A DNA stretch of 64,000 bases, taken from the NCBI GenBank assembly GCA_052327205.1, contig CM126206.1, positions 205,158,001 to 205,222,000 on the forward strand. The letters run 5' to 3'. Below, one piece after another: positions 32,831 through 59,200 of this stretch. The notes under the pieces were generated by a model. It saw nothing but the letters and a program-made list of their open reading frames with translations, ran no database searches and was not told where the DNA came from. How positions within the stretch are numbered: position 1 is the first letter of the stretch; every line of letters begins with the position of its first letter. The position numbers were made by a program, and so were the translations under genes. The DNA comes from Somniosus microcephalus (Eukaryota).

Positions 32831-34211
32831 TAGATGTAATATCTCCAAGTTTGCAGATGACACAAAGCTGGGTGGGCGTGTGTGCTGTGAGGAGGATGCT
32901 GAGAAACTCCAGTATGATTTGGACAGGTTGGGTGATTATACTGCATCTGCCATGCATCTGCCCAATGTGGATAAATGCGAGATTATCCACTTGGTGGCAA
33001 AAACAGGAAGGCAGATTATTATCTGAATGGCAATAGATAGGGAAAAGGGGGAAGTGCAACGAGACCTGGGTGTCCTTTGTAGGGTTCTCAAAATTCCCAC
33101 ATTCCCCAAAGTTATTAATAAAGGGACCCTGAAGGACAAGTTATTAATAAGGGTACCCTAAATGAAATGGCTTCTGGACCTTGTGGCAGAAACATGCAAG
33201 ATTGAAAGCAGGACCCTGCAAAACAGGTCAAGTTCAAAAGGGCTTTGAAAAACCTGACATGCCTGGGCCTGTGGGAGACTTGTTATTTTTGAAGCCAGAC
33301 AACTAGATAATACAGAATACACATTCTTCATTTTGAAACAAATCAACTCAGGAAAGACTTAATCTTGAACCCATCAAACCTTTGCATAAATAATCGCTTA
33401 CAGTTTAAACTGGCTACCAAGCCAGGAAGATACCGATTCACATTATGCATAACACCGAGACATTAAAGACCATTTAGCAACGGGGCAACCACCCAAAAAG
33501 CAGTTAAAGTGAACGACTATAATCACCTTAGACGAGCCCGCCAAAATTAGACAAAGAACTAGCCCTAATTTGGCGCGCAGGTAACAACCTCCAAAAGAGT
33601 ATAATTGTAGGAAGACAAGCAGGCAAATGCGGGGACGAACTGCTACGGAGATGAGCGAGCAGAGAAGGGCAGTGTGGTGAAGCGTTGGGGACAAGCAGGC
33701 ACACGCTCAGGTCCAGGTTACTCGAAATTCAAAGAAGCAGCATGAAACATCATGGCGAGGAGGCACGGTGGGGCAGGTTCCACCGAAGATGACTAGGCCG
33801 CAACCGCAGCCTTACACAAGGAATGACCACGAGCACCGCGGTAACAAAGGGCGCCGGCTAAACCATACCTTCAGATCATTACCACTGCACAGGTAACGAT
33901 CTAGGCCATTGCGACCGAGCTGACACCAAAGACCGCCAACCGAACCCCAACCGCAACAAAACCTCGACGACCAGACCACCACCGGAAGAACAAAACCCGA
34001 AGTTTTCCACTCTACAAGATAAAGTACCCAGCAAAGACTTTACTCCCTATCTCTAACGGAGAAAAGAGGGTAATTTACTCAGACGAATCCACCACTGCGC
34101 TCTGGGACCATGTGGCGACGACAGGCCCCAAAGGACACAAAGAGCGAACCCCAAAACCGCAACCGGCTTAATCGACAGGATTCGACCTGTCAAGAAACCC
34201 TTATTGGTGAG

Positions 34212-37200
34212 TGTGGTAAACCACTGTTATTGTATATTGTTACCTCTGGGTGGCGCTGTGTACCAAGGCATGCATCAGCTGACTCCGCCCACATGACCAG
34301 GTATAAAGGTGGGGGTTTCGCCGACTCACTTCCTTCTTGGAACCAGCCACCCACGAGAGGCATGCTCTGTTCTCTAGTTAATAAAAGCCTTTTCATCACC
34401 TTCCTGATTCATCGTCTTTTATGGAGTAATTGATAAGCGTATCAATTTTATTAACTAGAAGTAAAATGGCGACACCTGAACAGCAACAACAGCAGGCGTT
34501 GCTGCGAGCCCTCAGACCGGCATGCCTGGACCTCGACCCTCAAGCAGCGGGTTCATCAACCAATTTCGAACACTGGCTGAGCTGCTTTGAATCCTTCCAA
34601 GGCGCCTCCGCCGTGACATCGGAGGAGAACAAACTAAAAGTTTTGACCGCCCAGGTGAGCCCTCAAGTATATACGCTCATCCGGGACGCTACTACGTACA
34701 CGGCGGCCCTCGAACTACTAAAAGGGCAATACACGCGCTGAGTGAACACGATTTACGCCAGACACCTCTTGGGATCCCGCAGGCAGCAACCGGGGGAATC
34801 GGTAGAGGCATTTTTACGGGCGTTACAGACACTCTGCAGAGACTGCGACTGTAAGGAGGTAACGGCTGCGGGGCACGCGGAGGGACTTACTTGTGATGCC
34901 TTCGTCAGGGGCCTCCAGTCCGACTACTCCCGGCAGAGACTGCTCGAAAGCAAGGAGCTCGACCTGAAGACGGCCGTAGCCCTTGCGCTCTCGCTAGATG
35001 CAGCCCACCGAAACCTCGAAGCATACTCACGTAACGGCGCCGCGCCATGGCCATCGCGACCGTGGGACATGGGACCGCCGCCCCCGGCACCAACTGCTGC
35101 AGCGATGTCCCGAAATCAACTGGGACAGCCGCCCCCGGTAAGAACCGCAGCGATGCCCCGTAACCAGGCCCAAAAATGCTATTTCTGTGGCCAGTTAAAA
35201 CACCCTAGAGCGCACTGCCCGGCTAAGACCGCTACCTGCTCGGGCTGCGGGAAGAAAGGCCATTACGCCAATGCCTGCAGGGGGAAACCAGCGAACGCCA
35301 GCAGCGCCGCGTGCGAACCATGGGGGCAGCCATCTTATCTGCCATTTTGTGCACCTCCGGCCGCATGGCCGCCGCCATTTTATCCGCCGCACTCAACCGC
35401 CACTTCGTCTCCGGACTCGACCACCGCCTCGTCGGACGACCATACCGACTCACTAAGCCATACACTGGCCTCCGTTACGCTGGATCAAGCCCTCCCTCAT
35501 CATCTATCCAGCTCCATGATGGATATCACGGTAAACGGCCGCGCCACCACTTGCCTAATCGACAGCGGGAGCACAGAGAGTTTTATTCACCCAGACACGG
35601 TACGTAGCCACTCCCTCACGGTCCTGCCGACGCGCCATCGGATTTCTATGGCGTCCAAGTCCCAGTCAATGGACGTCGGCAGCTACTGTGTGGTGACCCT
35701 TTCGGTTGGGGGCACAGAATATAAAAATTTTAAACTTCTAGTCCTGCCCCGTCTCTGCGCTGCCGTGCTGCTAGGGTTGGATTTTCAGTGCCACCTTAGA
35801 AGTGTCACATTAGCATACGGTGGACCCCTCCCCCCACTCCTCGCATATCTGATATGGTCAACCAGATTGCGCAATACAAAGTATTCTCCACCATTGACCT
35901 TAAGTCAGCATACCACCAGCTCCCCATCCGCCATGAGGACCGCCAGTATACTGCCTTCGAGGCGAACGGCCGCCTCTACCACTTCCTTAGGGTTCCCTTC
36001 GGCGTCACCAACGGGGTTTCGGTCTTCCAAAGGGAGATGGACCGGATGGTTGACGAGAACGCGCTGCAGGCCACCTTTCCCTATCTGGATAACGTCACCA
36101 TCTGTGGCCACGACCAGCAGGACCATGACGTTAATCTAGAAAAATTCCTCCGTACGGCCCAACGGCTGCACCTAACGTACAATAAAGAGAAATGTATGTT
36201 TCGCACCAAACGCCTCGCCATTCTCGGCTGCGTGGTGGAGAACGGAGTCATCGGGCCCGACCCCGACAGAATGCGCCCCCTAATGGAGCTACCCCTCCCC
36301 CACTGCCAAAAAGCACTGAAGAGATGCCTGGGGTTTTTCTCCTACTATGCCCAGTGGGTGCCCCACTATGCAGACAAAGCTAGACCCCCTCATCAAATCC
36401 ACCTCCTTCCCCCTGACACCAGAGGCGTGTGCAGCCTTCACTCTTATCAAGAGCGATATCGCGAAGGCCACAATGCACGCAGTGGATGAGTCGATCCCCT
36501 TCCAAGTGGAGAGCGATGCATCCGACTTCGCCCTAGCTGCGACCCTTAACCAGGCGGGCAGACCCGTGGCCTTTTTCTCAAGGACCCTCCAGGGCCCCGA
36601 GACCCGACACTCCTCTGTTGAAAAGGAGGCCCAGGCTATTGTGGAAGCGGTGCGTCACTGGAGGCATTACCTGGCCGGAAAACGGTTTACCCTGCTCACT
36701 GACCAGCGTTCAGTAGCTTTTATGTTTAATAATAAGCAGAGGGGCAAAATCAAGAACGACAAGATCTTGAGGTGGAGAATCGAACTCTCCACCTACAATT
36801 ATGATATCTTGTACCGGCCCGGGAAACTAAATGAGCCCCCAGACGCCCTATCACGTGGTACATGCGCCAACGCGCAGGTTGATAGACTGCAGACCCTCCA
36901 CAATGACCTCTGCCACCCGGGGGTCACCAGGTTCTTCCATTTCATCAAATCCCGTAACCTGCCCTACTCCATCGAGGAGGTCAGGACCATGACCAGGAAC
37001 TGCCAAATCTGTGCCGAGTGCAAACCGCACTTTTATAGGCCGGACAGAGCAAGCCTGATCAAGGCCACTCGCCCCTTCGAGCGCCTGAGCGTCGATTTTA
37101 AAGGGCCCCTCCCCTCCTCTGACCGCAACGTGTACTTCCTCAACATAACTGATGAGTACTCCCGTTTCCCGTTTGCCATCCCTTGCCCAGACATGACCAG

Positions 37201-38223
37201 TACCACGGTCATCAAATGTCTGAATGACCTCTTCGCCTTGTTCGGGTTCCCTAGCTATATACATAGCGACAGGGGCTCATCTTTCATGAGCGACGAACTT
37301 CGGCAGTACCTGCTAGCGAGAGGTATTGTTACGAGCAGAACCACCAGCTACAACCCCCGGGGGAACGGCCAGGTGGAAAGAGAGAACGCGACGGTTTGGA
37401 AGGCCGTCCTCTTAGCCTTAAAATCTAAGGGCCTTCCGACCTCTCGCTGGCAGGAGGTCCTCCCTGCGGCGCTCCACTCCATCCGGTCACTGCTTTGTAC
37501 TGCCACTAATGCCACCCCTCATGAGCAAATGTTCGTTTTCCCCAGGAAGTCCACATCGGGAACCTCGCTACCGGCATGGCTGACTTCTCCTGGGCCCGTC
37601 CTACTGCAGAGGCACGTAAGGACCCATAAAACGGACCCCCTGGTCGAGAGGGTGCGCCTCCTACACGCCAACCCCCAGTATGCCTGGGTGACATACCCAG
37701 ACGGGCGGGAGGACACGGTCTCCATACGAGATCTCGCACCCTCGGGTACCCCTGAACTACCACCGTTATCCCCCACCACCCCTCCCAATCCAACCCCTGT
37801 AGACGACATGCCGGAGCCCCAGGACCCTTCGTTGACCACCCAGACACCAGATCCGACGTTGGATGCTGCAACACCGCCGCCGCCGCCACCACGACGATCA
37901 GGACGTCAGACAAGGCCTCCTGATAGACTTAACTACACGAACTTGTAGTACCCTTCACCCCGCCGGACTTAATTTTAAACAAGGGGTGAATGTGGTAAAC
38001 CACTGTTATTGTATATTGTTACCTCTGGGTGGCGCTGTGTACCAAGGCATGCCTCAGCTGACTCCGCCCACATGACCAGGTATAAAGGTGGGGGTTTCGC
38101 CGACTCACTTCCTTCTTGGAACCAGCCACCCACGAGAGGCATGCTCTGTTCTCTAGTTAATAAAAGCCTTTTCATCACCTTCCTGATTCATCGTCTTTTA
38201 TGGAGTAATTGATAAGCGTATCA
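34212..38223 (+). mobile_element. Gypsy-1 (Mag-like) LTR retrotransposon inside the provirus 5' LTR
   Basis: 233-bp LTRs (34212-34444, 37991-38223) with one difference found by eye; GTGAG TSD; twin zinc knuckles, DSG protease, YLDN RT, RNase H, HHCC/DDE integrase; PPT AAGGGG. Confidence 0.93.
34466..37948 (+). pseudogene. Gypsy-1 gag-pol, disrupted
   Basis: In-frame TGA at 34739-34741, internal deletion at ~35840 removing the RT N-terminus, frameshift at ~36385. Confidence 0.85.
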
Positions 38224-38575
38224 GTGAGCATAGTCCCTGGCCCCTTATAGCACAATTTAGTTAGATATTGGGGGTGGGACAAGGGTAGGGGGTTTAATCA
38301 TGTGATTTTTCCCTCGATGTACCATGTGTTCCCCATTCTTAATTAAGTGTGTCTTTTATATGCCTGTAACTATTCCAGTAATTTTCAGTGTTGTAATTTT
38401 ATTGTGCCTTTAATAAAATACAGTTTTCTTGCATCAAACCAGTTGTCTACTCCAATTTGTATCGCAGCCTGTACCTAAGTCCGGAGTCTAGAACCACAGG
38501 GGTGTGGGAGCGATTCGAACCACTCAAAAACAGTCAGGGGCAAGCTGACTGCGTACACCAAAACCCCTACAGAAA

Positions 38576-38595
38576 TGGCGACCGCGGCAGGACTC
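38576..38595 (+). promoter_or_regulatory. Provirus primer-binding site, tRNA-Arg(UCG)
   Basis: TGGCGACCGCGGCAGGACTC is the reverse complement of GAGTCCTGCCGCGGTCG-CCA, the vertebrate tRNA-Arg-TCG 3' end as I recall it; 4 nt after the LTR end. Confidence 0.8.
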
Positions 38596-38646
38596 CGGCA
38601 ACAGGGGTGCGATACAGTAGACTCTGATTCGGAGGAGCAAACTGTG

Positions 38647-40288
38647 ATGGAAGAGAGGATTTCTAATTATGTCTTCAGTAAGGTGAATATCACAAGAAGT
38701 GGATCACTAATCTGTTAAAAGCTGGGTGTCCGGTAGGTGCTGCAGCTAAATGGACAGAAGGGAAGGATCATAGGAAATCCATGGAAAAGGCAGTCTGGCT
38801 GATGTGCTTCAAGAAACAGATCCAGCTTTTGGACAGGCTCGTTGAAGCACAGGCAGCCGAGATATGGGAGTCAGCCCTGGAAGTTGAAGACAGGACTCTA
38901 GCACAGGAGACCAAGAGCAATGAGCTGAGGTTGCGGGAAAAGAATGCCCACCTAGCAAAACAAGTAAGAGAGCAGGAGGAGAAAGTAAAAGACATAAAGA
39001 CCGCATACAAGATAGCGAGCACACAGGGGTTCGAAGATGCAGATCACAGCCCCTGCAAGGAACAGATAGAGAATCTGAGCTCTAAGAAAAGCAAAGGGCA
39101 TGGTGTGCCTCATAAGCCCTAAGGCAGCCCAGGCCGACTTTACAGGGAACGAGGGGAAAGCGGTTCAGACACCACGGGTAGTGCCAAGGGACGATCCGGT
39201 TGAGGGGCAGGAGGACCCACGACCACCACCAGTAGCGCCAGGTTTCAGCGAGGTCTGGCAACAAGGGGGGGGTGGAGTTATGGGTAGAAACGGAGGTGGA
39301 GCAGCCCCCGCAAGAGAGGCTGGCACCGGGACAGATGTGCCCGGCCTGGCAGCAAAGGTTTGGCCCGCCCGCTAATGACGGGGAAGAGGGACCCCTCCAA
39401 AACCAGTTCGTAGTTCCCTATGGCACCCAACAGCGTAGGGCCATGGTAAGCCATATACCAAAGCTCACAGAAAAAGAGGACCCCTCGGTCTACTTCAGGG
39501 AAGTGGAACAGGCAGCCAGCATCAACGAGTGCGATGATGCCGAACAGACCAAAATGCTGCTGTTCTCCCTGGAGAGTAAGCTCCTCCAGTCCCTCTCGGA
39601 CCAGTGTAAGAAAGGACAGTGCGAGTATGGGGAGCTCAAGGAGGAAGTTCTCGAGGCCATGGGGATGAATGAGGGAAGTCCTTTCTCCCGAATGGAGAAG
39701 ACAGTGCAGCTCGCAGGGGAAACCCCGCAGGCTTTCGCAGACAGGTTGTGGCCGGTGTACAGGAGTGCCTGTACTGGGGCACCTGACCGGGCTAACCTGG
39801 ACCAGGATCAACTGACCCACTGGCTCCGTTGCCTGGTGGCAAACAGCTTGCCACAGGTCAGGGCCAAGGTGGAAGTCTGTTTTGACCCTAAGAATCCCCT
39901 GACTACCGAACTGACGGTGATCAGACAATTGACCCTAGCTTACAGGAATAGTAGGGGAACCGATGCACACCCACCTAAGGGGAAGGTGCATGAAGTAAAA
40001 CCCGGACAGGGTAGGAAGGAGTGGCATCAGGAAGGGAATAACCCCCCCAACACAAAGCTTAACTGTTATGGGTGTGGGAAGGATGAACACTGGAGGAAGG
40101 AGTGCAAAAACCCTTGGAAGGATAACAAGGGAAAGAATTCCTCAGCCCAAAAGACAGAGTTAGGAATCCCTCCCGCCACGGTCGAGTCCTTTTTGGACGC
40201 GATGAGGACCCTTTTGACTGGCCCAGGGAGGGTAGCAGCCACTACCGGTGCTCTGACCCCATCAGCCCCATCCAACCCACAGCCCTGA
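38647..40288 (+). pseudogene. Provirus gag (frameshifted)
   Basis: N-terminal coiled coil (ELRLREKNAHLAKQVREQEEKV), MHR-like QLAGETPQAFADRL, single CYGCGKDEHWRKEC knuckle. Confidence 0.85.
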
Positions 40289-41009
40289 CTAGAGCCAGCG
40301 CAGCCTATTTACCTGTGTTCGCTTCAGTACGACTTATGGAAGAGACCCCTCGTTGAGATGGAGGTAGAAAAGGTAAAGGGGACCTATCTGTTGGACACGG
40401 GGGCATCATGCACCGTGATCCATTCAGATAACCCCACCACCTCAGCTCCATCTAGCGGGGTCCCATACAGCCTGTCGGGATTCACGGGTAAAGAACAGGC
40501 AGGCTCATTTTCCATCCCGCTGTCCATTCGTTTAGGAACACTCCGCTCTAAGTGGACCTGTATCCTAATGAAGTGGGAACTGGAGGGTGGAAAAGGGATC
40601 CTGGGAGCCGACTTTATTGTGGGCCACGGGATCCTAGTGGATTTAAGGAATCTCTGCCTATGGGGGGCAAGTACAGGAAAGGAAGGCGGAGTAGTAGTAA
40701 TCCCAGGGAAAGAGGGGAAGGGGACCCTGTGCACCATGAAGTCTAAAGAGGGTTATAACCTCGAGCTCATGGTCAGTAATACCCCAAATGAGTTCCAGGC
40801 ATCTGTGCGAGCCCACCAAGCCACATTTGCCACACACAAGCACGACTGTGGGAGGGTCAACGGGTTAGAGGTCAGCGTAGACGGGGACCCTATGGCCCGA
40901 CCACAAAAACAGTATAACTTCCCCAGGGAAGCGGAGCCAGACATGGAAGCAGCCATGTCCTCCTTAGTGCAACAGGGGGTCCTGAGACCGATAGCCACCC
41001 ACGTAAACT
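40289..41009 (+). pseudogene. Provirus protease and RT N-terminus; rest of pol deleted
   Basis: LLDTGAS and GILGADF protease motifs, then PQKQYNFP...LVQQGVLRP..VN. RT homology stops at ~41009 with no RT core, RNase H or integrase recognisable. Confidence 0.85.
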
Positions 41010-43677
41010 GTGAACTGGAAAGTTCACAGACCGCACAGGAGGGGGGCAATGGCTCGTGTTAAAAAACCACCAGCCAGAAAACCCCCACCAGCCAAAGTCC
41101 CTAGAAGGTCCCCACGAACGCCACGGCCAAAGAAACCGTGGTCACCGGCTCCCCAGTTTAAACGGGCAGCCTCTCGTCAGGGATCGGTCTGAGGACAGAG
41201 GTTCCCAGCCAGCAGCCGCAGGCTGCGAGGGACCGAAAGTACAGGACAGGGCAGCCACACCGAAGGGAGTAGTGTGCTGCAGCCCGAACAGGGATTAGCC
41301 TGGCCGCCCGGAGACGGGCGGCAGATGTACATAGTTTCTGTAATGTAATTTGGTTATTGTTAAGTTTGGGTGTTTAGTTTAATTTTAAACAAGGTGATTG
41401 GTAGTTTAAATATTATTGTTTTAGTGTTTGTATTGTGTCAAGGTCACAAGACTCGACTATGCTTCATCCAAGCCAGAGAATCTTCTCGGGACCTGGCTAT
41501 ATGCTCGTGTCTCTTTACAGAAGGGATTTCGGGATGAAGGGGGGCATACTCCTACTCGCCCCGATAGGAATGAGCACAGGGAAGCGAGGTGATGTGGAGG
41601 ACTCCCACATCTATGGGTGCTCAGGAGAGAGAGCACCGGTTGTGACTGCTGGGGGCAGCGAACGAGGCGTGGAGGAGCTCGCCATCTATTCCCATGAGGG
41701 AAGATGGCCAGGGTGGCTGGGATCCAACTCCACCCGGTACTCCAGCCAGACCGGGTTCACCTATGGGGAGGCCTCCCTCCCCTGCCCCAGCATACAGGTG
41801 GTGGCCACACGGGTTGGGGTCATTGAGGGGAAACGCGTGTGCCTGACTTGCAGAGTACAGATTCCACTGGGAAGGTGGTGGTGGCTCAGAAAGCTGAGCA
41901 AAGACTTGGGGGACCGTACAGCTGACTGGGTACGACTAGGGAACGACACCTACCGGACGGTCACAGGGACCCGAGGGGGGACTAGTGTATGCTGGGATAA
42001 GTGGTGGGAGTCGGAACAGGGAATTTATGTCTGCATGTGGGGGTCGCAAAGGGCCTGCCCCACAGGCATATCCATCATCTTCTCCGCATCATGGCAGGAT
42101 AAGGGGAAGGGGGTGGAATGGGATTCCCACCTACACACTTGCATAGTCCCACGCTCCCCAGCCCCAGTTAAAGCCACTGAACTAGTGGCACGCGCCCGAA
42201 AGCCCCTGCCCATGACCCAGGCAGCAAGGACACACAGAGAGGGGTGCCCTGCCACCACCAAGGGACCAGGGAATGGGCTGGTACTAGTGCCGACGGAAAA
42301 GGTGCTATACCAGGGAGTACACGACGCGGTAGCTTCCGTGATTCTGAACCTTACCGAGGTACACTTACCTGAGTGGTGCCCCAAAGAGACAGAACAGCTA
42401 TACCAGGCCCCGTTAAGAGAAATGTTTAGGAAATTCTACGAGTTCGATTTTGCCAATGTAGACAAGACAGAACTGTCCACTACACACACTGAGTATTTTG
42501 GTAGTGCGGGGAGACAAAGAAGGGGAACCTGGAATGATGTTTTCACAGCGTTTAACACAGGATCCTCTGTTATAAACAGCCTGGATGACATAGTATTGCA
42601 GACACAGATAAACAGTTTGAACACACAATTGCGAAAAATCTTAATGGATGAAAATACAGTAGTAGGCTCAGAGTTACACGAGGACCAGGCTATGACGTTC
42701 CATTTAAAAGAGATCATTGCTGAGCTGGAGAAGCACGCAAAGACTGTAAATGCCCTCATAAAAGAGAGGACAGCAATGCTTCAGATCAGGCTGCACAGAA
42801 CGAGGTGTGCGTACTGTATGGGGCATGGTTGCTGGGCGAGGGCCGCAGTAACCTGGAGGATTTAAAACAGGGTTTAGTCCCCTCCTGGATCAGCAACAAG
42901 CACCTCGCAGCCCTCCACTGGGCTTCTGAGGCCTACCCTGTCCCAGTAGATTGTGGGCGCTCTAACCACACTATCATGGGGATAGTAGTGAGGATGCCGG
43001 TCATGGGGGGGACAGCCCGACCTGCACCGGTATACAGGGTAGAGAACATTGGAGTCATTCAAGGGGGTGCACACATCCGTTTCACAGTGGTCCCACCTTA
43101 TCTCAAAGTGGGAGCACGCAATAACAGGTACTGACCTCTAGGGGTGCCGGAGCCGGGGAGCACACATAATACTATGTCCCCAGCACTTGAACGCCTATTC
43201 AAAACCACAGTGCAGGTTTAAAGCTGCTGGCGCAAAACCTATAAACTGTACCATGGAGGTAATGGCACAAGACCATGTTCCCCCACAGGTAGCATATATA
43301 GGAGGTGGGACATATTGGCCTAGAAATTCAGTATAGCCACGTTTGGGGCACTACAGCCAGGCGTTCGCTAAATTTAGCGCCCGGCGCAACTTAGCGCCAC
43401 CTTTGCCGATATTCAGTTGCATCGCCCCAAGAGGTTGCTGCTGCGCTAAAGCAGGCGATGCAAGACTATCATAAGGAGCTAAACCAGCGTGCCAAGGCGC
43501 TAACACCGAGGGCGGGTGCAGCGCAGGTGCGGCAAGTTGCTGATTGAAGGCAGACACGCTGGCGCCGGTCAGCTCTTAAAGGGGGAGGGTGGACTTGTTT
43601 GGCTGCCACGCCCTGCACACTGCAGCCCTGAATCAAGGCCTGAACATAGTTGCTTCAACAGGTCAACGCCCACGACT

Positions 43678-46798: not shown

Positions 46799-47132
46799 GT
46801 GGTGTGGCCAAATGTTTTTTTATATATGAAGGCCAAGAAGGTTTCTTTATATATGAAGGCCGAGACTGTTGTGTTTGTTTTTTATATGAAGGCCGAGGAT
46901 CATGGTCATTTTTGTTTAACTGTTTTTTTCATTTTCTGAAGGTTGAGCCAGTTATGTCTCTGACTGTTTTTTGGGGGGTTTATCTGAATTAGTTTGTCAT
47001 GCGGGAAGGGCACAGAGTTTGCACATTGTCCATGTTTGCACTTTGAACTATTTGTTGCCTTGACCAGCTGAGGGCTTGCAGAGCGGCTCCATTCATGTCC
47101 TTTCATTGGCACAAGCCATTCCGAGAGGGGGC

Positions 47133-48208
47133 CTAGAACCGAGTTGCAATAAGCTGCCAACGGACGGCCCTTGCACTTTGTGCCTCCCTCCCGTCTTGGT
47201 GCTCCGCTTCCTCCTCCTCCTCCTCTGGTGGTCCTCCAATGTCTGCTGGCAGTGGCCGAGTCCTGAGGATAGCCAGGTTGTGCAGCATGCAGCACACTAC
47301 AACAAAATGGGAGACTCGCTCAGGCGAGTACTGTAGGGCTCCTCCGGAACGATCCAGACAGCGGAACCATTGCTTGAGCATGCCAATGATGTTCCTGGTA
47401 GCTTGATGGGTGTCATTGTATCGCTCTTCAGCAGGGGTGCTGGGCGCACGGAGCGGGGTCATCAACCAGGTGCACAAAGGATAGCCTTTGTCCTCGAGAA
47501 GCCATCCTCATGGGTGAGCCTGGGCTTCAAAAATGTCTGCCACAGGATGAAGGCATTGTGGCTGCTGCCAGGAAAGCGGGCATTGACAGCTAGTATGAGC
47601 TGCCTGTGGTCACACACCAACTGGACGTTGAGCGAACGGTAGCCCTTCCGGTTGCGGTAATCCTCGGCATTCTGTAGAGGTGCCTGCAAAGCCACATGCG
47701 TGCAGTCAATGGCGCCCTGGACCATGGGGAAGCCCGCTATTCCTCCAAATCCCATTGCACGTTCTTCCTGCTTGTCCAGGGTCATGAGGAAGGAGATGTA
47801 CTGACGTCTCCTTCTGAAAAGGGCATTGGTCACCTGACGGATGCAGCAATGTACCGCGAACTGGGAGATGTTGGAAATGTCCCCAGTAGCAGATTGGAAG
47901 GAGTCGGTGGCATAGAAGTTGAGAGCCACCGTCACTGCCACCGACAGAGATGTCCTGCTCCTCAGCCGTGGCTGCAGATCTCTGCAAAGCAGGTGGCAGA
48001 TCTCGGTGACCACCTCCCTTCTGAATCGCAGCCTCCGAACACACTGCTCCTCAGACATGTTCAGATATGAGAACTGCTGGCGGTATACCTTGGGTGGGTA
48101 AGGCCTCCTGTGCCGACGCCTGTTGGCCCTTCTCCGTCTGGCCATGACTGGCACTCTCTCACGGCGTCTGAGCCCTTTGAATGCAATGCAGTAAGCCAAC
48201 GTTTCCAC
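47133..48208 (-). pseudogene. Harbinger B transposase (HARBI1-like DDE)
   Basis: [44 protein letters not shown]; frameshift near 47530. Confidence 0.9.
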
Positions 48209-50027
48209 CCATTGCAGCCCCCATTATATGTGGCAACTCAAGGCTATGGCACTGAAAGTTAAATCCAAGTGCAAAGCTCTGGCCTGAAGCCAGAAGTACC
48301 TGTGCGAGCGCCGAGTCAAACCAGAAAGCTCTCTCCCTTTGTCTCTCTCCAAATATCCGTCTCTCACAAAGAAGGATTGCCACAAAATGGCTACCACTTA
48401 TAATGCAGGAGGAGTCCCCTTTAAATAGCACCCCCCGCAGCGACTGGGAACCATTCCCCTCTACCAGTCGCTGGGGGCGCCAGCCGCACAGAAGGGCGGC
48501 GCCACTGAAGTTCCGGTTCGGGGCGCACCAAGGGCGTTGCACCATGAAATGACGTCAGGATCTGCGCGCGCAGCTGAGCGGGCGCTGCGGTTTAGTGCCG
48601 CCGCTAAATCTTGAGTGAAGTTCGCGAGAGGCGCAGATCGCGCCGCGCCCGGGCGCTAGCCGCTTAGCACTCCACTTCTCCTCCTCCTAAGGCGCTAACG
48701 GCTGGCGCTAACAACTGAATTTCTAGGCCATTGTGTCACCACAGGTGCGCCCCACTACCAGCATGGACAGCATAGCTGGTGTCTGGTAAGTGACAGCAGT
48801 TTCTGCTTTAAACCCGAGGCAGAAGCTCAAGTGGCCCAGGAATGAATTGGCCCCATTCCTGAACCCTCTACTGTTCACCTCACTGTAAAAGTGAATTTTA
48901 CCAACCTGCAAATATATGTAGCACATTTCGGCTACGAAATCCCCCCTCTACCAGAACATCTTACCAAGTTACTAAAAGCAGTAGTCATCTCACAAAAACA
49001 TTTCTACACGTTGGAGCAGAAGACAGTAGAGATAGGGGCCAAGATATTGAATATTGTAGTTCCACCCTGGTGGGACATCTTTGAAAATATAGAGGTCCTT
49101 TCATGAATTAGAATGGCTTCCCACATCCTCGTGGTTTGCCAGCTGGGAATAGTATTGTACCTAGTGTGCACTCAGTGCAAGGGAAAAGGCCAAATACTAG
49201 AATTCTGAAACCAAAGGACTTGGAAGGAGCATTATGTTAAGGTGGAGGGAGATACACCTGTTTGAATCTTTTTATTTTATATTTCTGAATAAAGATTGTT
49301 GTTTTTTTGTGTTTTTGTTATTTTTAATAAAGATTTTGATGTGTTATTTTTAATAAAGATGTGTGTGTACCAAGTGGTGCAGGGGTGTTGGAACCCCTCC
49401 ATGCTTGGATGTATGTAAATAACTGTATTCTGCCTATGTATGCTTATGTACACTACATTTTTAGAGAATGGGAAATGTGTGTGTCATGGGATGTTAGATA
49501 GGTAATTACAGGGAAGGTTGGCTATGGAGGGTCGGGAATTTTGCTCAACTTTGTAAGTATGATACTTAAAGCGAGTTTTAGTATCAACAGGAGGGAGTGT
49601 AGGGCTCTCAAAATTCACACATTCCCCAAAGTTATTAAAAAAGGGACCCTGAAGGACAAGTTATTAATAAGGGTACCCTAAAGGAAATGGCTTCTGGACC
49701 TTGTGGCAGAAACATGCAAGATTGAAAGCAGGACCCTGCAAAACAGGTCAAGTTCAAAAGGGCTTTGAAAAACCTGACATGCCTGGGCCTGTGGGAGACT
49801 TGTTATTTTTGAAGCCAGACAACTAGATAATACAGAATATGCATTCTTCATTTTGAAACAAATCAACTCACGAAAGACTTAATCTTGAACCCATCAAACC
49901 TTTGCATAAATAATCGCTTACAGTTTAAACTGGCTACCAAGCCAGGAAGATACCGATTCACATTATGCATAACAAACACCGAGACATTAAAGACCATTTA
50001 GCAACGGGGCAACCACCCAAAAAGCAG

Positions 50028-50784
50028 GGGGATAGAATATAAAAATAGGGAGGTATTGCTTCAGTTGTACAAGGTATTGGTGAGACCGCACCTGGAATAC
50101 TGCGTACAGTTTTGGTGTCCATACTTAAGAAAGGACATACTTGCTCTCGAGTCAGTACAAAGAAGGTTCACTCGGTTAATCCCAGGGATGAGGGGATGGA
50201 CATATGAGGAGAGGTTGAGTAGATTGGGGCTCTACTCATTGGAGTTCAGAAGAATGAGAGGCGATCTTATTGAAACATATAAGATTGTGAAGGGGTTGGA
50301 TCGGGTGGATGCGGGGAAGATGTTCCCGATGATGGGTGAAACGAGAACTAGGGGGCATAGTCTTAGAATAAGGGGCTGCTCTTTCAAAACTGAGATGAGG
50401 AGGAACTACTTCACTCAGGGTGGTAGGTCCATGGAATATGCTGCCCCAAAAAGCTGTAGAAGCTACATCATTACATAAATTTAAAACAGAAATAGACAGT
50501 TTCCTAGAAGTAAAGGGAATTAAGGGTTACAGGGAGCGGGCAGGAATTTGGACACGAGTCTAGGTTCGGATCGGTCATGGCCCTGTGGGTAGCGGAGCGG
50601 GCCCTGGGGCCGTGTAGCCTGATCCTGCTCCTATTTCGTGTGTCTAATTCTGTTAGATTCAGGAGATGGTTCTGTGATAGTGGATTGGCGGTTAGGATCA
50701 GATCAGCCATGATCTTATTGAATGGCGGAGCAGGCTCGAGGGGCCGATTGGCCTACTCCTGCTCCTATTTCTTATGTTCTTATG
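50028..50784 (+). mobile_element. 5'-truncated CR1 in the 3' LTR
   Basis: ORF 50056-50478 RT tail; the segment is absent from the 5' LTR at the same position. Confidence 0.9.
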
Positions 50785-51320
50785 TAAGGTGAACGACTAT
50801 ATGTAAGGTGAACAACTATAATCACCTTAGACGAGCCCGCCAAAATTAGACAAAGAAGTAGCCCTGATTTGGCGTGCAGATAACAACCTCCAAAAGAGTA
50901 TAATTGTAGGGCCACCGGTAGGCAGACAAGCAGGCAAAAGTGAGGATGAACTGCTACGGAGACGAGCAAGCAGAGAAGGGCAGTGTAGTGAAGCGTTGGG
51001 GACAAGCAGGCACACGCTCAGGTCCAGGTTACTCGAAACGCAAAGAAGCAGCACGGAACATCGTGGCGAGGAGGCACGGTGGGGCAGGCTCGACCGAAGA
51101 CGACTAGGCCGCAACCATACACGAGGAACGACCACCGCGGTAACAAAGGGCCGGGTAAACCATACCTTCAGATCATTACCACTGCACAGGTAACGATCTA
51201 GACCACCGTGACCGAGCCGACACCGAAGACCGCCAACCGAACCCCAACCGCAACAAAACCTCGACGACCAGACCACCACCGGAAGAACAAAACCCGAAGT
51301 TTTCCACTCTACAAGATAAA

Positions 51321-54300
51321 TGTAGTGTCCGTGTGTAGATAAAGACACTGAAGACAGGAGTTGGTTCATAGGTATTTACTAAGCAAGCCTGGGGGGGGGG
51401 GGGGGGGGGGGGGGTTCTAAAGGATATACACAATACACAGGCTTATATAGCCCAAGTGGCAATTACCGGCATTACGCACACCTGGGGCTCTTAAAGGCAC
51501 ATACACCATAATTCCTCCCCTTCTAGCTAACTAGTACATCATATTTTAAGTAATTATTAATTACATGTTATATGCAAAATAATATACATTGCTGTATTAA
51601 TTAATTATAAGTTAGTCTCTCAGGAGGATTCCTGACTCGGTCCGGATAACGCCTCGGGGGTGTAGTAGTTTCTGGTGGTGTAGTAGGTTCTTCTGGCAAG
51701 GCCGATTCGGCTTGAAGGCCAGTGTCGGGTTCATCGGGCTCCAGTATCACCGGATCGGAGGTAGATATGGGTATCTCTACTTCATCGTTAGATGTATAGA
51801 GTGGTGGTGTATGTTGTCCCTTTTCGGATGACTTGATGATTTGGTCAGCATGGCGCCTTATTATGCTGTCTCCGATGTCCACGGTATACATCAGTGGTCC
51901 TAATCGTGTGCAGATAGTTCCAGGCTGCCATTTCTCGGTACGGTAGTCCCGGGCCAAAACCGGTTGGCCTATCTGGAAGGCCCTAGTTGGCCTTTCATTC
52001 ATGCCCTGAAACTGCCGGTTCTCCACGTCCCTTCGGATGTTGGGCTTGACCAAATCCAGCCGGCATCTTAGGTTTCTATTGTAGAACATCATGGCGGGAG
52101 TTTGGTTAGTAACCATATGCGTTGCATTCCTATATGCAAATAAGAAGTTATCCACCTTGTGCTGAAGTTTTATGTCTTCATTACTCATGGCCTTGATGGC
52201 CTTCTTGAAGGTCTGGACAAACCTTTCAGCCAATCCATTGGTGGCGGGATGGTATGGGGCGGACGTGTAGTGCTTTACCCCATTGTTCTTTAAGAACTTT
52301 CTGAATTCTTCGGACACAAATTGCGGTCCATTATCAGAACATATCTGCTCCGGCAGCCCATTCCTGGCAAATATGGTCCTTAATACTGTGATGGTTTTTT
52401 CCGTGGTGGTGGAGGACATCTTTATTACCTCCGGCCACTTGGAGTGTGCATCAACTGCGATTAAGAACATTGAGTCCATAAATGGACCAGCAAAGTCGAT
52501 GTGCACCCTTTGCCAGGGAGATGAGGGCCACTCCCATGGATGTAGAGGGGCCTGTGGCAGAGCATTTTGGACCTTCTGGCATCCTAGGCAGCTCTTGGTC
52601 ATGTCTTCGATGTCTCCATCGATACCTGGCCACCATACAAACGCCCTAGCTAGGTTCTTCATTTTCACTCCACCCAGATGCCCCTCGTGAAGCTCCTTTA
52701 GCACTTTATCCTGGAGTTTGGGTGGAATCACCACTCTGGATCCACACATCAAGGTTCCTCGGCACACTGACAGCTGTTCTCTTCTTTGCGAGAATGCTGG
52801 CAACAGTGGTTCGCCATGTGCTGGCCATCCCTTCACTGTTAAATCATAGACCCGTGAGAGAGTAGGGTCATTTCTTGTCTCCCTTTCAATGGCAGAATTT
52901 GTCACCGGTAGACATTCCACTATGGTAGAGTGGAATATCTCTACTGGGTCTACTGTAGGTGCCTCTTCTATCGTTGGCAATGGTAGGCGTGATAAACCGT
53001 CAGCATTCCCATGCTGTTTTGACCCTTTGTATTCAATGTTGTATTGGTGTGCCCCTAGAAAAAGGGACCACCTCTGTAGTCTTTGTGCCGTCATAATGGG
53101 GACACCTTTTTTAGGGTTGAATATGGAGATGAGGGGTTGATGGTCAGTCAGCAAGGTAAATTTTTGTCCGTGTAGGTAATGGTTGAATTTCTTCACTCCC
53201 CATACCAGGCTGAGTGCTTCCCTGTCTATTTGGGCATAGTTACGCTCAGCTGAGTTCAATGAGCGTGACGCAAAAGCTATCGGCCGTTCCGAGCCATCAG
53301 GGAATCTATGGGACAATACCGCTCCTATGCCGTAAGGGGATGCATCGCACGCCAGTCTGATTGGTAGTGATGGGTTGTAATGAGCCAAAATTTTCTCGGA
53401 TGTGATTAAGTCTTTACATTTATGGAAGGCACGTTTACAGTCTTCGTTCCATTTCCAAATCACTCCTGTCTGTAGAAGATCATTAAGAGGGTGTAGAATA
53501 GTTGATAAGTTCGGTAAAAATTTATGATAGTAATTTATTAATCCCAGGAATGACCTTAATTGTGAAACATTTTCAGGTGCTGGGGCTTTTATAACTGCTT
53601 CAATTTTTTCAGGTGACTTATGCAACCCTTCCTTATTAATTATGTGGCCACAATATGATGTCTGATTTTGGAAAAATTCGCACTTGGGGCGATTTGCTCG
53701 TAGGCCCCGTTCTTTCAGCCTAGTGAGCACCTGCTCCAAATTGGCAAGGTGCTCGTTGTCGTTTTCTCCTGTTATAAGGATGTCGTCTAGGTAGCATGGA
53801 GTCCCCGGAATCCCTTGCAGGACTTGCTCCATAGCTCTTTGCCAGATAGCTGGAGCTGATGCTATTCCAAAAACCAGTCGATTGTACTGGTACAGGCCTT
53901 TGTGTGTGTTTATTGTGAGATACTTTTTAGAAGTCTCCTCAACCTCCATTTGTAGATATGCCTGTGCCAAGTCAATTTTTGTGAAACGTTTCCCTCCGGA
54001 TAGTGAGGCGAAAATATCTTCTATCCTCGGAAGAGGATACTGTACCGTGTGAAGGACCGGGTTTACAGTCACCTTAAAGTCCCCACAGATGCGAATTTTT
54101 TTCTGTTCCTCAGAGTTATTTTTCAATGTTTTTTTCATGACTGGAATGATGGGTGTTGCCCATTCGCTCCAATCTATTTTGGATAATACGCCTGCCTTTT
54201 CCAAATTCTTCAGCTCTGCCTCGACTGCCGGACGCATTGCGTATGGCACCGGTCTTGCCTTAAAAAATTTTGGAATTGCTGTATCTTCCACTTTTATTGA

Positions 54301-56221
54301 GGCGGTGATGCCTTTCAAGGTTCCTAGTTTCTCTTGAAACACTTCTTTGGCGTTGGCCAAGATGCCTTTTAATCGTTCAGGTATGATGTCATCATTGTTT
54401 TTTTCCTTACTGGTCACCGTCAGTGCCTGAATGGAGTGCCAGTCTAAACGTATCTTCCTTATCCATTCACGTCCCAACAACGGTGGACCACCATCTTGTA
54501 GAATGTATAAATACAACTTTTGTATTTCTTTGCCGTTGTATACCACAGGCACCCTTATTTTTCCTTTGGGGTAGACTTTCTGCCCCGTATATGTTTTTAA
54601 GATAATGGATGTGTCTTTTAGAGGTATATGCGAAAATAGCCTCTCGTAATCTCGTCGATTTATTACGGTTAGAGCTGATCCTGTATCTAGCTCCATTTTA
54701 ACTGGGGACCCTGCTATTGTGAGGGTAACCCAAATGGTTTGGTAATCCTCTTTGGCAAGTACATTATGTAATTTGAGACAGCTTAGTCTCTTGTTTCCGG
54801 AGTCGCTATCGCTATTCTGGTCTTCGGAGCTATTGTCCGTCACCATTTGTACCTTCCTGTACTTTTCTTTATTGATTTTTTGTTTTCTGTCAGTGGATTT
54901 ATTTTGTTCAGATTGGCATACCCGTGCAATGTGTCCAATCTTACCACATTGCCTGCATGCTTTGCCCTTGAACCAGCAGTCCCTCTGGTTATGGGTGGAT
55001 CTGCCGCAGCGATAACATCTTCCGAACTCCTGTGTCATTTTATGGGTGCCGAAGTCCTGTGTCTCTTGTTGTATCTCTGCAGCTCCTTTTGCTGCTGCTT
55101 CGTATGATACAGCCATACTGAAAGCTTTGTCCAATGTTAAATCTTTTTCAGAAAGCAGTCTTTTTTGTGTTCCTTCACTTAAGAGACCGCAAACAAATTT
55201 GTCTCGAAGATAATCCGATAGTCCTGCTCTGAATTGGCAGTACTTTGATAGCTTTCTTAATTCGGTTAGGTAATCAGCGTTACTTTCATTCTTGTGTTGA
55301 TTTCTCTTGAAGAACTTGAATCGTTCCGCTATCAGCAGCGGTGTTGGGTTTAAATGCTCCTGCAGGGTATCAACAATTTCTTTAAAAGTCTTGTCCTTTG
55401 GTTTGGCTGGAGTGATTAAATTTCGTAACAGCCCGTATGTCTTCGCGCCCATTAAGTTCAGAAGTACTGAAGCTTTTTTTTCATCTGTTATTCCATTTGC
55501 AGTGCAATAAACCTCTACTCATTCCACGTATGTGGTCCAATCTTCTATTTCGCCATCAAAAGCCTCAATATTACCAGATTTAGGCATTTCAGAAAAGATA
55601 TGGCGCTTCCCGCGCTTTTTTTTTTCTCTCTGTAGCAACGATATGGCGCTTCCCGCGCTTTCCCGCCGCTGCTACCGATAACAACGCTGTTTTAATGTGG
55701 TTTCCGTTTATTCACTGTTGGAGACTCGTTCCCGACGGAGGTCTAAACGCTGACCTGCTTGCTGCGCCAGCCGTCTCTCGAGTGCACCCTCCCAGTCCGT
55801 TATTGCTTGCCTCCGATTTCGCTGCCTGTCTCAGCTGTAGAGCCCACCGCTGGAGCTCCAGCCTGACGCCCAGGAAGGATTAGCGCAGAACCTGTCACCA
55901 GCTTGGCCAGCTGGTGAAACCACAGTTTCTCTTACTTCCTTGAGTCTTCTGGACGCTGGAGGAATCGATGTCCTTGAGGTGCTGCCGAATTGCAGGTAAG
56001 TCCGTTTCCACTTCGTCGCCACTGTAGTGTCCGTGTGTAGATAAAGACACTGAAGACAGGAGTTGGTTCATAGGTATTTACTAAGCAAGTCTGGGGGGGT
56101 TTCTAAAGGATATACACAATACACAGGCTTATATAGCCCAAGTGGCAATTACCGGCATTACGCACACCTGGGGCTCAAAGGCACATACACCATAATTGCT
56201 CTTAAAGGCACATACACCACA
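51321..56221 (-). mobile_element. Gypsy-2 (Mag clade) LTR retrotransposon in the 3' LTR
   Basis: LTRs 51321-51510 and 56023-56221; ATAAA TSD; PBS TGGCGACGAAG (tRNA-Ser-like) at 56011-56021; PPT AGAAGGGGAGGAA. Confidence 0.93.
51601..55587 (-). pseudogene. Gypsy-2 gag-pol, single frame with one premature TGA
   Basis: ATG at 55587 (MPKSGNIEAFD), TGA at 55519-55521, then an open 1283-aa ORF with twin knuckles, DTGS, YLDD, RNase H and integrase. Confidence 0.9.
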
Positions 56222-59200
56222 ATAAAGTACCCAGCAAAGACTTTACTCCCTATCTCTAACGGAGAAGAGGGTATTTTACTCAGACGAATCCACCACTGCG
56301 CCCTGGGACCACGTGGCGACGGCAGGCCCCAAAGGACACAAAGAGCGAACCCCAAAACCGCAACCGGCTTAATCGACAGGATTCGACCTGTCAAGAAACC
56401 CTTATTGGTGAGCATAGTCCCTGGCCCCTTATAGCACAATTTAGTTAGATATTGGGGGTGGGACAAGGGTAGGGGGATTAATCATCTGATTTTTCCCTCG
56501 ATGTGCCGTGTGTTCCCCATTCTTAATTAAGTGTGTATTTTATATGCCTGTAACTATTCCAGTAATTTTCAGTGTTGTAATTTTATTGTGCCTTTAATAA
56601 AATACAGTTTTCTTGCATCAAACCAGTTGTCTACTCCAATTTGTATCGCAGCCTGTACCTAAGTCCAGAGTCTAGAACCACAGGGGTGTGGGAGCGATTC
56701 GAACCGCTCAAAAACAGTCAGGGGCAAGCTGACTGCGTACACCAAAACCCCTACACCTTGTGCACCAGTCGCTGAAGGTAAGCATGCAGGTGCAGCAGGC
56801 GGTTAAGAAGGCAAATGGTTTGTTGGCCTTCATAGCGAGAGGATTCGAGTACAGGAGCAAGGATGTCTTGCTGCAGTTGTACAGGGTCTTGGTGAGACCA
56901 CACCTTTAGCCTTTAGTATTGTGTGCAGTTTTGGTCACCTTATCTGAGGAAGGATGTTCTTGCCATGGAGGGAGTGCAGCGAAGATTCGCCAGACTGATA
57001 CCTGGGATGGCAGGAATGACGTATGGAGAGAGATTGGGTCGATTGGGCTTGTATTCGCTAGAGTTTAGAAGGAGAGGGGCTCTCATTGAAACTTATAAAA
57101 TTCTAACAGGACTAGACAGACTAGATGCAGGAAGGATGTTCCCGATGGCGGGGAGTCCAGAACCAGGGGTCACAGTCTAAGGATAAGGGGTAAGCCATTT
57201 AGGACAGAGATGAGGAGGAATTTCTTCACCCAGAGAGTGGTGAAACTGTGGAATTCTCTACCACAGAAGGCAGTTGAGGCCAACTTATTAAATATATTCA
57301 AGAAGGAGTTAGATATATTTCTTAAGGCTGAAGGGATCAAGGGATATGGGGAGAAAGCAGGGACAGGGTACTGAATTTGGATGATGAGCCATGATCTCAT
57401 TAAATGGCGGAACAGGCTCGAGGGGCTGAATGGCCTACTGCTGCTCCTATCTTCTATGTTTCTATGTCTGCTGCAGATCCCTGGAAAAAGCCTGAGGCAA
57501 AGAAGTTGAGGGTGCTGGTGACTTTGACAGTCACTGGTAAGGCATGTCCACCAGGTCCTTTGGGCTGCAGCTCTTGCTCCAGCAAGCTACAAATGTCTGC
57601 AATGACCTGGCGCAATAGCCTGAGCCTCCTTTGGCACTGCTGCTCAGTCATGTTGAGGAAGCTCATCCTCTGCCTGTATACCCTGTGTTGGGCGCATCAC
57701 CTCCAGCATGGTGCAGCCCTGCGCTGATGCCCTCTGTCCTGTGGAGCATCAGGTCATTGAGGAGAAGGTTGGTGGTGTTGTTGCTGCTGCTGGTGCTGGG
57801 GCTCATCTTGGTCTGATTCTGAGGACCAAGGTGAGACAGTATAAACGGCACCTATGCTGATGTAATAGATGGCAGGTCAAGTAAAGATCAGAGGACCAAT
57901 CTGTCAATGTTGTGATACTGAGTAGCAATGTGGTGAAAGCACCTTCCGAAGTTGCAGAAAAGACCTGAAAACTCTAGACACCCAAATCTGTGCAAAAAAT
58001 TGAGTCATCAAGAGCCTTTCCCTTAGGCAAGTAATGAGGTGTAATGTGGGAGTAATAATGTGGATCTCCATGCTCTCCATTAATGGCCTCGCACAATGGC
58101 CACTGAGCTTCCATCTCACGTTGACAGACAAGATTCCCGAGCTGCGTGATTCCCATGGTTATCCAGTAAAAATCAAAATCTCTGGTTAAAAACCCTGTTA
58201 GGGGTCTCACAACAACCATTTAATGACTTCAATTAGGTCGCTCGCCTCTGCCGTTCGGGTCTGTGGCGCGCTAGGAAGCGCGCATGAGTTAAATGAGCAA
58301 GGCGACGGGATGATGGCAGGTTCCCAATGCACTCGCAATTTCAGCAATTTTTACTGCCGACCCGCCCCCAAACCCACACGCCCGACAGCAGGAAAATTCC
58401 AGCCAAGGTCTTCGTTTTGTGTACCTCATATGCACTGCTTTTAAGAATTCCCTAATATAATTCTGCACACCAAGTCTTCTTGCTTTGGTGCCAAATTTAA
58501 AATGTCAAATATGTTTGTACAGATCTCAAAAGTTTCCACCAAATCACTTATTGATTCCTTAAAATGTAATAGTTTTGATGGGAACATTCTAATGAGCCAA
58601 TTCAGCACTTCCTTTCACATCAATAGAACCACTGTAAGTATCAATCATCAACTATAACAGTTTTTATTCACAGTTTTCTGTAGAACTTAGTATTTAAAAC
58701 AATAAAACTAAACTTGCTTTCAAGTGCATGCAGCAGCTGTAGCTTAACATTCAAATACTGAACATTTCTTAAAATTAAGTAAAAGATCAAATTAATTTCT
58801 GAAACAAATCCAATAGCCAAATGCTACTTTTACTGACATGTATAAAATAGAATTCCTCAATTAAAATTTGTCGAATGAAAATTTGTTTAAAAAAAAATTA
58901 AGTGCATCGAGTACTTTTCCACCAGAGAAATCCAATGTTAGCTGCACATTTCAGTGTATCCGTGCACTTGTATCATAACTTGCAGGAATTTGGTGGGGGA
59001 ACTAAATTGTGATCTGGTATAGAACATCAAAACTATTTTTTTGCAAAAAAAAAGACAAATCAAAAAAGGTTAATCATCCACATAAAATATTATTAGCACA
59101 ATTATGAGATAAAAATGTATTTGCTGGCAACAGAAAATAAATTTAAAATTAAGGGAAGGTTAGAATGGTTTGCTTGCAACGGTCCCCAAGTACCTCCATG

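Follow-up and report, generated by a model that had tools for sequence, protein, structure and literature searches.

The window, a stretch of 64,000 nucleotides on contig CM126206.1 of Somniosus microcephalus, contains a provirus at 33078-56755 that begins with TGTAG and ends with CTACA. It is flanked on the forward strand by the 4-bp target-site duplication CCTT, read from the sequence at 33074..33077 on the left and at 56756..56759 on the right. The provirus interrupts a CR1, the two halves of which overlap by 4 bases when compared with the CR1 copy at 14176-15121. An earlier note on this DNA had described a provirus beneath four younger insertions, with a 4-bp duplication and the order LTR-PBS-gag-pro-(deleted pol)-env-PPT-LTR. 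The insertions could be delimited, and 8,563 own bases remain without them, close to the note's figure of about 8.6 kb. The order of the parts was confirmed.

The 5' LTR is entered by Gypsy-1 (34212..38223, forward strand), an LTR retrotransposon with LTRs of about 233 bp (K2P 0.009) and the target-site duplication GTGAG. Env is split by a Harbinger transposon (43317..48729) with 16-bp perfect TIRs and the duplication ATT; its open reading frames are a Myb/SANT frame on the forward strand and a DDE_Tnp_4 transposase on the reverse strand. This transposon in turn holds a CR1 3' fragment (about 45269..46530, reverse strand). Another CR1 3' fragment lies in the 3' LTR at about 50028..50803 (forward strand) and shows no clean target-site duplication. 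Gypsy-2 (51321..56221, reverse strand), also an LTR retrotransposon, retains an open gag-pol frame of 1305 aa and has the duplication ATAAA.

All parts of the two provirus LTRs read on the forward strand. The first part of the 5' LTR (U3; 33078..34211) starts with TG and matches 49598-50027, 50804-51320 and 56222-56412, while its last part (38229..38571), with AATAAA and a terminal CA, is 98% identical to 56408-56755. The 3' LTR consists of 49598..50027 (97.4% identical to 33078-33503), the CpG-rich segment 50804..51320, which is the most diverged from the 5' copy, and 56227..56755, which matches the 5' LTR and ends in CA. In own bases the LTRs measure 1477 (5') and 1476 (3'); their pieces are 97.4, 89.1, 96.9 and 98.0% identical, with an overall K2P of 0.036. 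A purine-rich PPT ending in GGAGGGAG precedes the 3' LTR at 49578..49597 (forward strand). No accessory ORF is conserved in both LTR copies, the longest frame in the 5' LTR being 88 aa. The LTRs had been called unusually long, which holds against SnRV (518 bp, PMC12193657, versus 1.48 kb here) but not against Loki-Dcl, where the LTR is about 1.4 kb by line count.

The PBS (38576..38593, forward strand) starts with TGG at 38576 and probably pairs with tRNA-Arg, for which the support is indirect: in six prokaryotic or viral loci carrying the complementary 3' end, four of the five tRNA genes called were Arg. Literature on a tRNA end matching the PBS was not found, and no Rfam families or tRNA genes were detected within the window. 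Gag (38575..40288, forward strand) is frameshifted near 38.7 and 39.1-39.2 kb and ends with TGA-CTAG in frame with pro. It contains one CCHC knuckle (Pfam E=0.012, below the cut-off) and matches SnRV Gag weakly (E=0.01). The following segment (40289..41010, forward strand) comprises the protease, which matches RVP (Pfam, E=1.6e-4), a pre-RT segment and the start of RT; it is 65% identical to the intact Pol P0001 over 217 aa. About 34 residues into RT the alignment with P0001 stops. Beyond this deletion junction the sequence (41011..41533, forward strand) is unassigned and is perhaps an IN tail, a reading not confirmed by BLAST, which gave no match for 41011-41300. The rest of RT, the tether, RNase H and the IN core are absent from the provirus.

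The 5' part of env (41534..43316, forward strand) encodes a probable N-terminal Ig-like domain (aa 85-167), an F2-like strand, the cleavage-type motif RQRR at 42512, a fusion-peptide-like stretch, a heptad region and a Cys-containing region, and is frameshifted near 42.77 and 43.1 kb. The 3' part (48733..49211, forward strand) carries WWD at 49068 and a transmembrane segment peaking at about 49113, has two in-frame stops and is 68% identical to the C-terminus of P0061. These motifs lie as the earlier note had described them. One CxxC is found in the N-terminal part. Neither CX6CC nor an LQNR-type ISD was present in the five env pieces tested, in line with the remark that no gamma-type ISD had been seen. 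The proposed shark host is supported as elasmobranch-type: each of the 13 named Env relatives comes from a shark, skate or ray, with 16 of 20 relatives looked up. Neither Gag, Pol nor Env is encoded in full by the provirus.

Env had also been described as F-like. This is backed by the Atlas features, which score 0.93 to the Baculo_F cluster and 0.91 to the Fusion_gly cluster, and by the relative P0067 (70% identical), for which the Atlas score is 0.95 and TM 0.57 to a Fusion glycoprotein F0 cluster. Neither the window Env nor any of 18 relatives gave a match to Pfam Fusion_gly or Baculo_F, sequence and profile searches of the PDB returned nothing meaningful, and the Env search among longer proteins yielded none of 4964 candidates. 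The two structures predicted by AlphaFold were of poor quality (pLDDT 46, and 43 for the relative P0073), and Foldseek of the Env models against BFVD and PDB produced no matches at E<=0.001; RSV/hMPV F at PDB ranks 2, 4, 5 and 8 had non-significant E values of 0.7-1.4. The top five VIA matches were F or foamy Env (Z 4.9-5.6), and they are not counted as evidence because they span one helix only.

The earlier note assigned the provirus to the lokiretroviruses (lokiorterviruses; Wang & Han 2020, PMC7947760; 2022, PMC9040795), as a representative of that lineage in sharks, and Env offers this reading some ground. It aligns with a Loki Env by hhalign over 179 columns (21% identity, E=0.0024, probability 12), and a profile of its F1 part placed two Loki Envs above all 200 shuffles, which SnRV Env did not reach (8/200). 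SnRV Env nevertheless gave a collinear match of 211 columns (E=0.005), as weak as that of the Loki Env. The window Env is F-like by the Atlas features and, on a relative, by structure; it has no gamma motifs and leans weakly to Loki Env over SnRV Env. An F-like Env is not unique to Loki, and its presence is not enough to make an element a lokiretrovirus. The TGA-CTAG junction, common to the Loki locus L003, and the LTR length of Loki-Dcl also speak for Loki affinity.

Since RT is deleted in the window, phylogenetic placement rests on P0001, the only match at E<=0.01 among 1638 candidates, which is 65% identical and has RT, tether, RNase H and IN. Close relatives of P0001 were not found in viral contigs, nor was the Loki motif. 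The whale-shark gene models P0066 and P0071 combine P0001-type pol pieces (39-69% identity) with this env (53-54% identity), so that the whale shark carries the provirus family of the window. P0001 has a dual RNase H, the second being retroviral; this resembles Loki but is not diagnostic, as it also occurs in canonical retroviruses and Odin.

The RT tree (50 rows) places P0001 inside canonical retroviruses with support 100/96 and the Loki-type rows outside with 100/100. The RT+tether tree (37 rows) again puts it inside canonical retroviruses (99/96), in a group with frog and coelacanth sequences (100/99). The trees contained three Loki-type rows only, and no Odin or fish foamy-like rows. Joining P0001 with Loki gave an AU value of 0.019; for the whole P0001 group, including frog and coelacanth, the value was 0.0009 on RT+tether and a borderline 0.055 on RT alone, the latter being a point in favor of the Loki assignment. 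RT identity of P0001 is 41% to SnRV, 33-34% to Loki, 35% to FFV and 50-52% within the frog/coelacanth group. P0001 carries the RT motif PQG, versus PFG in 24 of 24 published Loki RTs. PQG is not absolute to retroviruses, being found in four Gypsy rows as well. The window's own protease and RT start match SnRV at E=2e-16 versus 6e-6 and 1e-5 for Loki, and PR and RT lie 173 aa apart in the window and 160 in SnRV versus 566 in both Loki loci. Furthermore, the screen that defined Loki found none of six chondrichthyan genomes positive, although one of the six species was the whale shark, in which this family is present. The lokiretrovirus label is unsupported, because the lineage is defined by RT phylogeny and the RT of the relative falls elsewhere; membership is very unlikely and largely refuted.

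In the RT phylogeny proposed in the earlier note and run here on P0001, AU tests also rejected the Gypsy and gamma/epsilon groupings (0.019 and 0.0002, respectively). Descent from an errantivirus-like Ty3/Gypsy element that carries env for a baculovirus F-type protein would account for the top Atlas clusters being Baculo_F/Gypsy env. Against it stand the retroviral second RNase H and the Gypsy clade, which excludes P0001 at 100/99 in the RT tree; on these trees this origin appears refuted, its probability being close to nil. Foamy viruses differ in the CCHC knuckle, present in the Gag of the window, and in the gag-pro junction, which here keeps one reading frame. A spuma-related, foamy-like ERV from cartilaginous fish would fit the long LTRs, and joining the group with foamy viruses was not rejected (AU 0.14 and 0.07, with no fish foamy-like rows). 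This topology was never the best tree, however, and the RT identity to FFV is below those to SnRV and the group itself, so a foamy-like origin is extremely improbable. Its further support is that foamy Env has been structurally linked to F, according to PMC11468914.

The domains are somewhat discordant. The IN of P0001 is 43.6% identical to Loki, 35.7% to SnRV and 44% to P0012, with a poorly resolved IN tree, and the best match of its tether outside its own group is a Loki locus (38.8%). Both values count against the canonical reading, the IN value also for Loki membership, and the IN and Env F1 identities, leaning to Loki against a canonical RT, would also suit a recombinant in which a canonical RT backbone captured env, perhaps with IN, from a lokiretrovirus instead of inheriting an F-type Env. 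Domain replacement is given as common in this group in PMC7947760. On the other hand, the Env resembles that of Loki only very slightly, to a degree equalled by the SnRV match, no Loki donor has been reported in cartilaginous fish, and the lower IN identity to SnRV can be explained by the long branch of SnRV. Such a capture is considered unlikely.

The locus is best explained, with high probability, as a defective endogenous canonical retrovirus (Retroviridae, not lokiretrovirus) of an elasmobranch genome, belonging to an early-branching lineage with frog and coelacanth ERVs and having SnRV as the nearest named virus. The provirus inserted into a CR1 and afterwards took up four younger elements, the pol deletion, frameshifts and stops. 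The ancestral virus was probably primed on tRNA-Arg and may have read through the UGA-CUAG stop to produce Gag-Pol, with a Pol of the form PR-RT-tether-RNase H-IN, as in P0001. Entry would have depended on a furin-cleaved class I F-type fusogen, of which the N-terminal Ig-like domain is the likely attachment part.

It is tentatively suggested that this early-branching canonical lineage of sharks and rays, whose Pol relatives occur in frogs and coelacanth, has retained an F-type Env of ancestral origin, a homologue of Loki Env, and added an Ig-like attachment arm. If true, and taken with foamy Env, this would place an F-type fusogen in the ancestor that Retroviridae and Loki share. It would contradict the scenario of independent origins favored in PMC9040795, which is based on the lack of detectable similarity between canonical and Loki Envs. 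Snakehead-related ERVs of cartilaginous fish are already in print; what may be important is the pairing of a canonical retroviral RT with an F-type Env that is detectably similar to that of Loki. It hints at a greater age and a wider spread of this Env type in retroviruses than has been supposed. Several shark and ray genomes contain many copies of the family, and on these the origin of retroviral Env can be examined.

Among known systems, Retroviridae share with the provirus the arrangement LTR-PBS-gag-pro-pol-env-PPT-LTR, tether plus RNase H, and the RT clade (Pol taken from P0001). Gamma- and epsilonretroviruses are set apart by the AU value and the env motifs given above, and errantiviruses by RT, which in P0001 lies outside Metaviridae. 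Odin elements combine dual RNase H and a sister position to Loki with lack of env, which is present here. Lokiretroviruses resemble the provirus in the F-like Env with RXXR and, through P0001, in dual RNase H and the level of IN identity; they differ in RT clade, the PFG motif and a PR-RT interval longer by about 400 residues, and the Env of L003 is without the long Ig-like N-terminal arm. The frog and coelacanth Pol models P0003-P0008, annotated 'NYNRIN-like' or 'Gypsy integrase-like', form one clade with P0001 (100/99) at about 50% RT identity; the NYNRIN-like name had favored Loki. The Pyxicephalus Pol model ends with an Ig-like segment after IN. CmiERV lineage I of the elephant shark clusters with SnRV by Pol in Han 2015 (PMC4422223), and by that description is a cartilaginous-fish ERV similar to the provirus in size (9.56 kb) and LTR divergence (0.033). 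The SnRV group is equated with clade Huo in Xu et al. 2018 (PMC6001957). For SnRV the reference used here was L001 (10,688 nt), whose RT is the same as in the SnRV row of Wang & Han Dataset S3. The sisterhood of SnRV with P0001 is weak in the RT tree (91/54) and absent from the RT+tether tree (AU 0.063). SnRV differs from the provirus in the stop (TAG-G versus TGA-CTAG), LTR length, PBS sequence and a shorter Env with a short tail. Nevertheless, SnRV has the highest RT identity to P0001 among named viruses and shares with the provirus a canonical RT with PQG, a pre-RT motif, a similar PR-RT spacing, a gag stop in frame with pol, a single CCHC and a weakly collinear Env core.

The most fitting reading of the provirus at 33078-56755 is a degraded elasmobranch ERV from a canonical lineage that branches early and lies close to the snakehead retrovirus (SnRV). 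In the self-comparison of the window, its LTR pair is split into four matching pieces: 33078-33503 against 49598-50027 (97.4%), 33505-34023 against 50804-51320 (89.1%), 34019-34211 against 56222-56412 (96.9%) and 38224-38571 against 56408-56755 (98.0%). The 5' end reads TGTAG at 33078, the 3' end reads CTACA at 56755, and CCTT flanks the element on both sides. The coordinates proposed in the earlier note are exact. The provirus interrupts a CR1 whose halves overlap by 4 bases when matched to a second CR1 copy, an independent sign of the 4-bp TSD. After subtraction of the insertions, 8,563 bases belong to the provirus itself, with LTRs of 1477 and 1476.

The younger insertions under which the provirus had been said to lie were all delimited. 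Gypsy-1 (34212-38223, TSD GTGAG) is located in the 5' LTR, and a Harbinger element (43317-48729) with 16-bp perfect TIRs, Myb and DDE_Tnp_4 domains and a CR1 inside is located in env. The 3' LTR contains a CR1 fragment without a clean TSD (about 50028-50803) and Gypsy-2 (51321-56221, minus strand, TSD ATAAA). Divergence within the LTR pairs of the two Gypsy elements is 0.009 and 0.017, as would be expected if they were inserted later than the provirus. Gypsy-1 shows no TGG-type PBS straight after its 5' LTR (34445-34470); what follows is AT-rich sequence leading to the start of gag. Gypsy-2 retains an open 1305-aa gag-pol frame with all domains (51604-55518, minus strand), and by this reading frame its family may have been recently active; its two LTRs are told apart by a long run of G and by a short duplication. 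The Harbinger carries both Myb/SANT and transposase genes as well as short tandem repeats; its TSD is ATT, the usual Harbinger TSD being TWA. Elsewhere the window consists largely of CR1 fragments; no long host ORF was seen there, and a degenerate tandem array of 27-30-bp units CCT/CAGCTGTTG lies at 29355-29975.

Divergence of the provirus LTRs is K2P 0.036 overall; three pieces lie at 0.017-0.024 and the CpG-rich one at 0.067. The corresponding age is wholly rate-dependent: the mammalian rate gives about 8 My, the shark rate that PMC4422223 assumes about 80 My. The CpG-rich piece (about 33506-34023 against 50804-51320) is roughly three times as divergent as the others and has several indels; 15 of its 32 differences fall at CpG, and its non-CpG differences are also raised (0.033 per site versus 0.012-0.016 elsewhere). 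Another copy may have recombined with this piece or converted it.

The PBS begins at 38576. The complementary tRNA 3' end is that of tRNA-Arg in four of the five tRNA genes called in six loci, a prokaryotic or viral comparison set that indirectly supports a tRNA-Arg type; presumably the PBS matches vertebrate tRNA-Arg(TCG). Gag is frameshifted, has a single CCHC knuckle and ends at a stop, TGA-CTAG, in frame with the protease; UGACUAG is described as a readthrough context in PMC13517186. The coding match to Pol ends about 34 residues into RT, and the rest of RT, the tether, RNase H and the IN core are absent. None of the gene products is encoded in full by this copy.

The lineage was therefore placed through P0001, the sole intact Pol found among 1638 candidates (65% identity across 217 aa), which has the domains RT, tether, RNase H and IN. 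Two whale-shark gene models combine P0001-type pol pieces with env of the provirus family, which ties this pol type to the family. The best relatives of P0001 are frog and coelacanth Pol models. References were SnRV (its RT matching the published row exactly), three lokiretrovirus (Loki)-type loci and 40 retroviral RT loci; of these 40, the RT tree took in 14 and the RT+tether tree 8. The Loki-type loci are near-complete elements on contigs filed as metagenome records, presumably host fish DNA. The RT tree used 50 of 104 RT cuts, leaving out near-duplicates and most Gypsy rows. It places P0001 within canonical retroviruses (100/96) and Loki outside (100/100), with SnRV weakly supported as sister to the shark-frog-coelacanth group (91/54). 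In the RT+tether tree (37 rows), P0001 is still within canonical retroviruses (99/96) and the group is retained (100/99); SnRV moved away.

In AU tests, P0001 with Loki gave 0.019, and the whole group with Loki 0.055 on RT and 0.0009 on RT+tether. Values were 0.019 for P0001 with Gypsy, 0.0002 with gamma/epsilon, 0.14 and 0.07 for a foamy grouping, and 0.063 for the group with SnRV. The shark lokiretrovirus proposed in the earlier note is thus not borne out by RT of the relative, although the Env is probably F-type like that of a lokiretrovirus; the observation behind the proposal was confirmed and its interpretation supported in part. In the Loki-defining paper (PMC7947760), none of six chondrichthyan genomes, whale shark included, is Loki-positive.

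Env starts at 41534, with RQRR at 42512, WWD at 49068 and TM at about 49113; frameshifts and stops are present. CX6CC and LQNR were searched for in five env pieces and neither was found, in agreement with the proposed non-gamma Env. The proposed F-likeness is likely, at less than high resolution. Atlas features of the Env core score 0.93 against Baculo_F clusters and 0.91 against Fusion_gly clusters, and those of P0067, a 70%-identical relative, 0.95. The Atlas model of P0067 reaches TM 0.57 against a Fusion glycoprotein F0 cluster and 0.54 against Baculo_F, with alignment scores below the service's naming bar; structure models made for the Env family were too poor to add to this question. Residues 85-167 match Ig_3 weakly (E=0.0016, below the Pfam cut-off). 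An Env F1 profile ranked both Loki Envs (6.6 and 9.4 bits), but not SnRV Env, ahead of all 200 shuffles, a modest result because shuffles do not keep heptad periodicity. By hhalign, 179 columns aligned to Loki Env (E=0.0024); when the alignment was widened, SnRV Env matched over 211 columns (E=0.005) and Loki Env over 34, all at low probability. By eye, a stretch at the N terminus of SnRV Env (6131-9532 of its locus) looks Ig-like, and its core shows weak collinearity with the shark Env family; Pfam gave neither a fusion nor an Ig match. The Pyxicephalus Pol model continues past integrase into an Ig-like segment (residues about 1214-1291); this sequence suggests an Ig-led env in the frog relatives too.

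Of the 20 relatives that the Env search gave, 16 were checked; all 13 named ones are sharks, skates or rays, which points to an elasmobranch host. In two sawshark gene models (P0063, P0064), env pieces of the family are spliced to two other genes, a zinc-finger and a Niban-like one, which could be annotation artefacts or exonisation. Matching contigs numbered 28,399, 35,490 and 7,617 in three runs from three organisms, with all 30 bins covered, and one RNA run gave 3,359 matching reads (about 24% of the run searched), only 26 reaching 99% identity. These counts show an abundant family in which other copies are transcribed.

The analysis shows the structure, insertions and breaks of this copy, and the domain order and placement of the relative. 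By established retrovirology, an intact element would be primed by tRNA-Arg, produce Gag-Pol through stop readthrough and generate the 4-bp TSD on integration. Furin would cut Env at RQRR, freeing a fusion peptide together with a heptad repeat, while attachment would fall to the Ig-like arm.

In searches of the open literature, no description was found of a shark ERV that joins a canonical RT to an F-type Env with an Ig domain; a term search of PMC11468914 found none of the words Loki, snakehead and shark. SnRV-related ERVs of cartilaginous fish are already known (PMC4422223, PMC6001957). Several features lean towards Loki: IN of P0001 is 43.6% identical to Loki versus 35.7% to SnRV (the IN tree giving no clear placement), the best match of its tether outside its group is Loki, one Loki-type locus (L003) shares the TGA-CTAG junction, and both Loki Envs are detected by the F1 profile. 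The LTRs, called unusually long, are so only relative to the 518 bp of SnRV, since those of Loki-Dcl measure about 1.4 kb. Loki differs by its PFG motif, found in 24 of 24 published RTs, and by a protease-to-RT spacing of 566 aa in 2 of 2 Loki loci versus 173 in the window. SnRV shares PQG with P0001, a supporting point only since four Gypsy rows also have it. Its spacing is 160 aa, and the window's own PR and RT start match SnRV at 2e-16 versus about 1e-5 for Loki.
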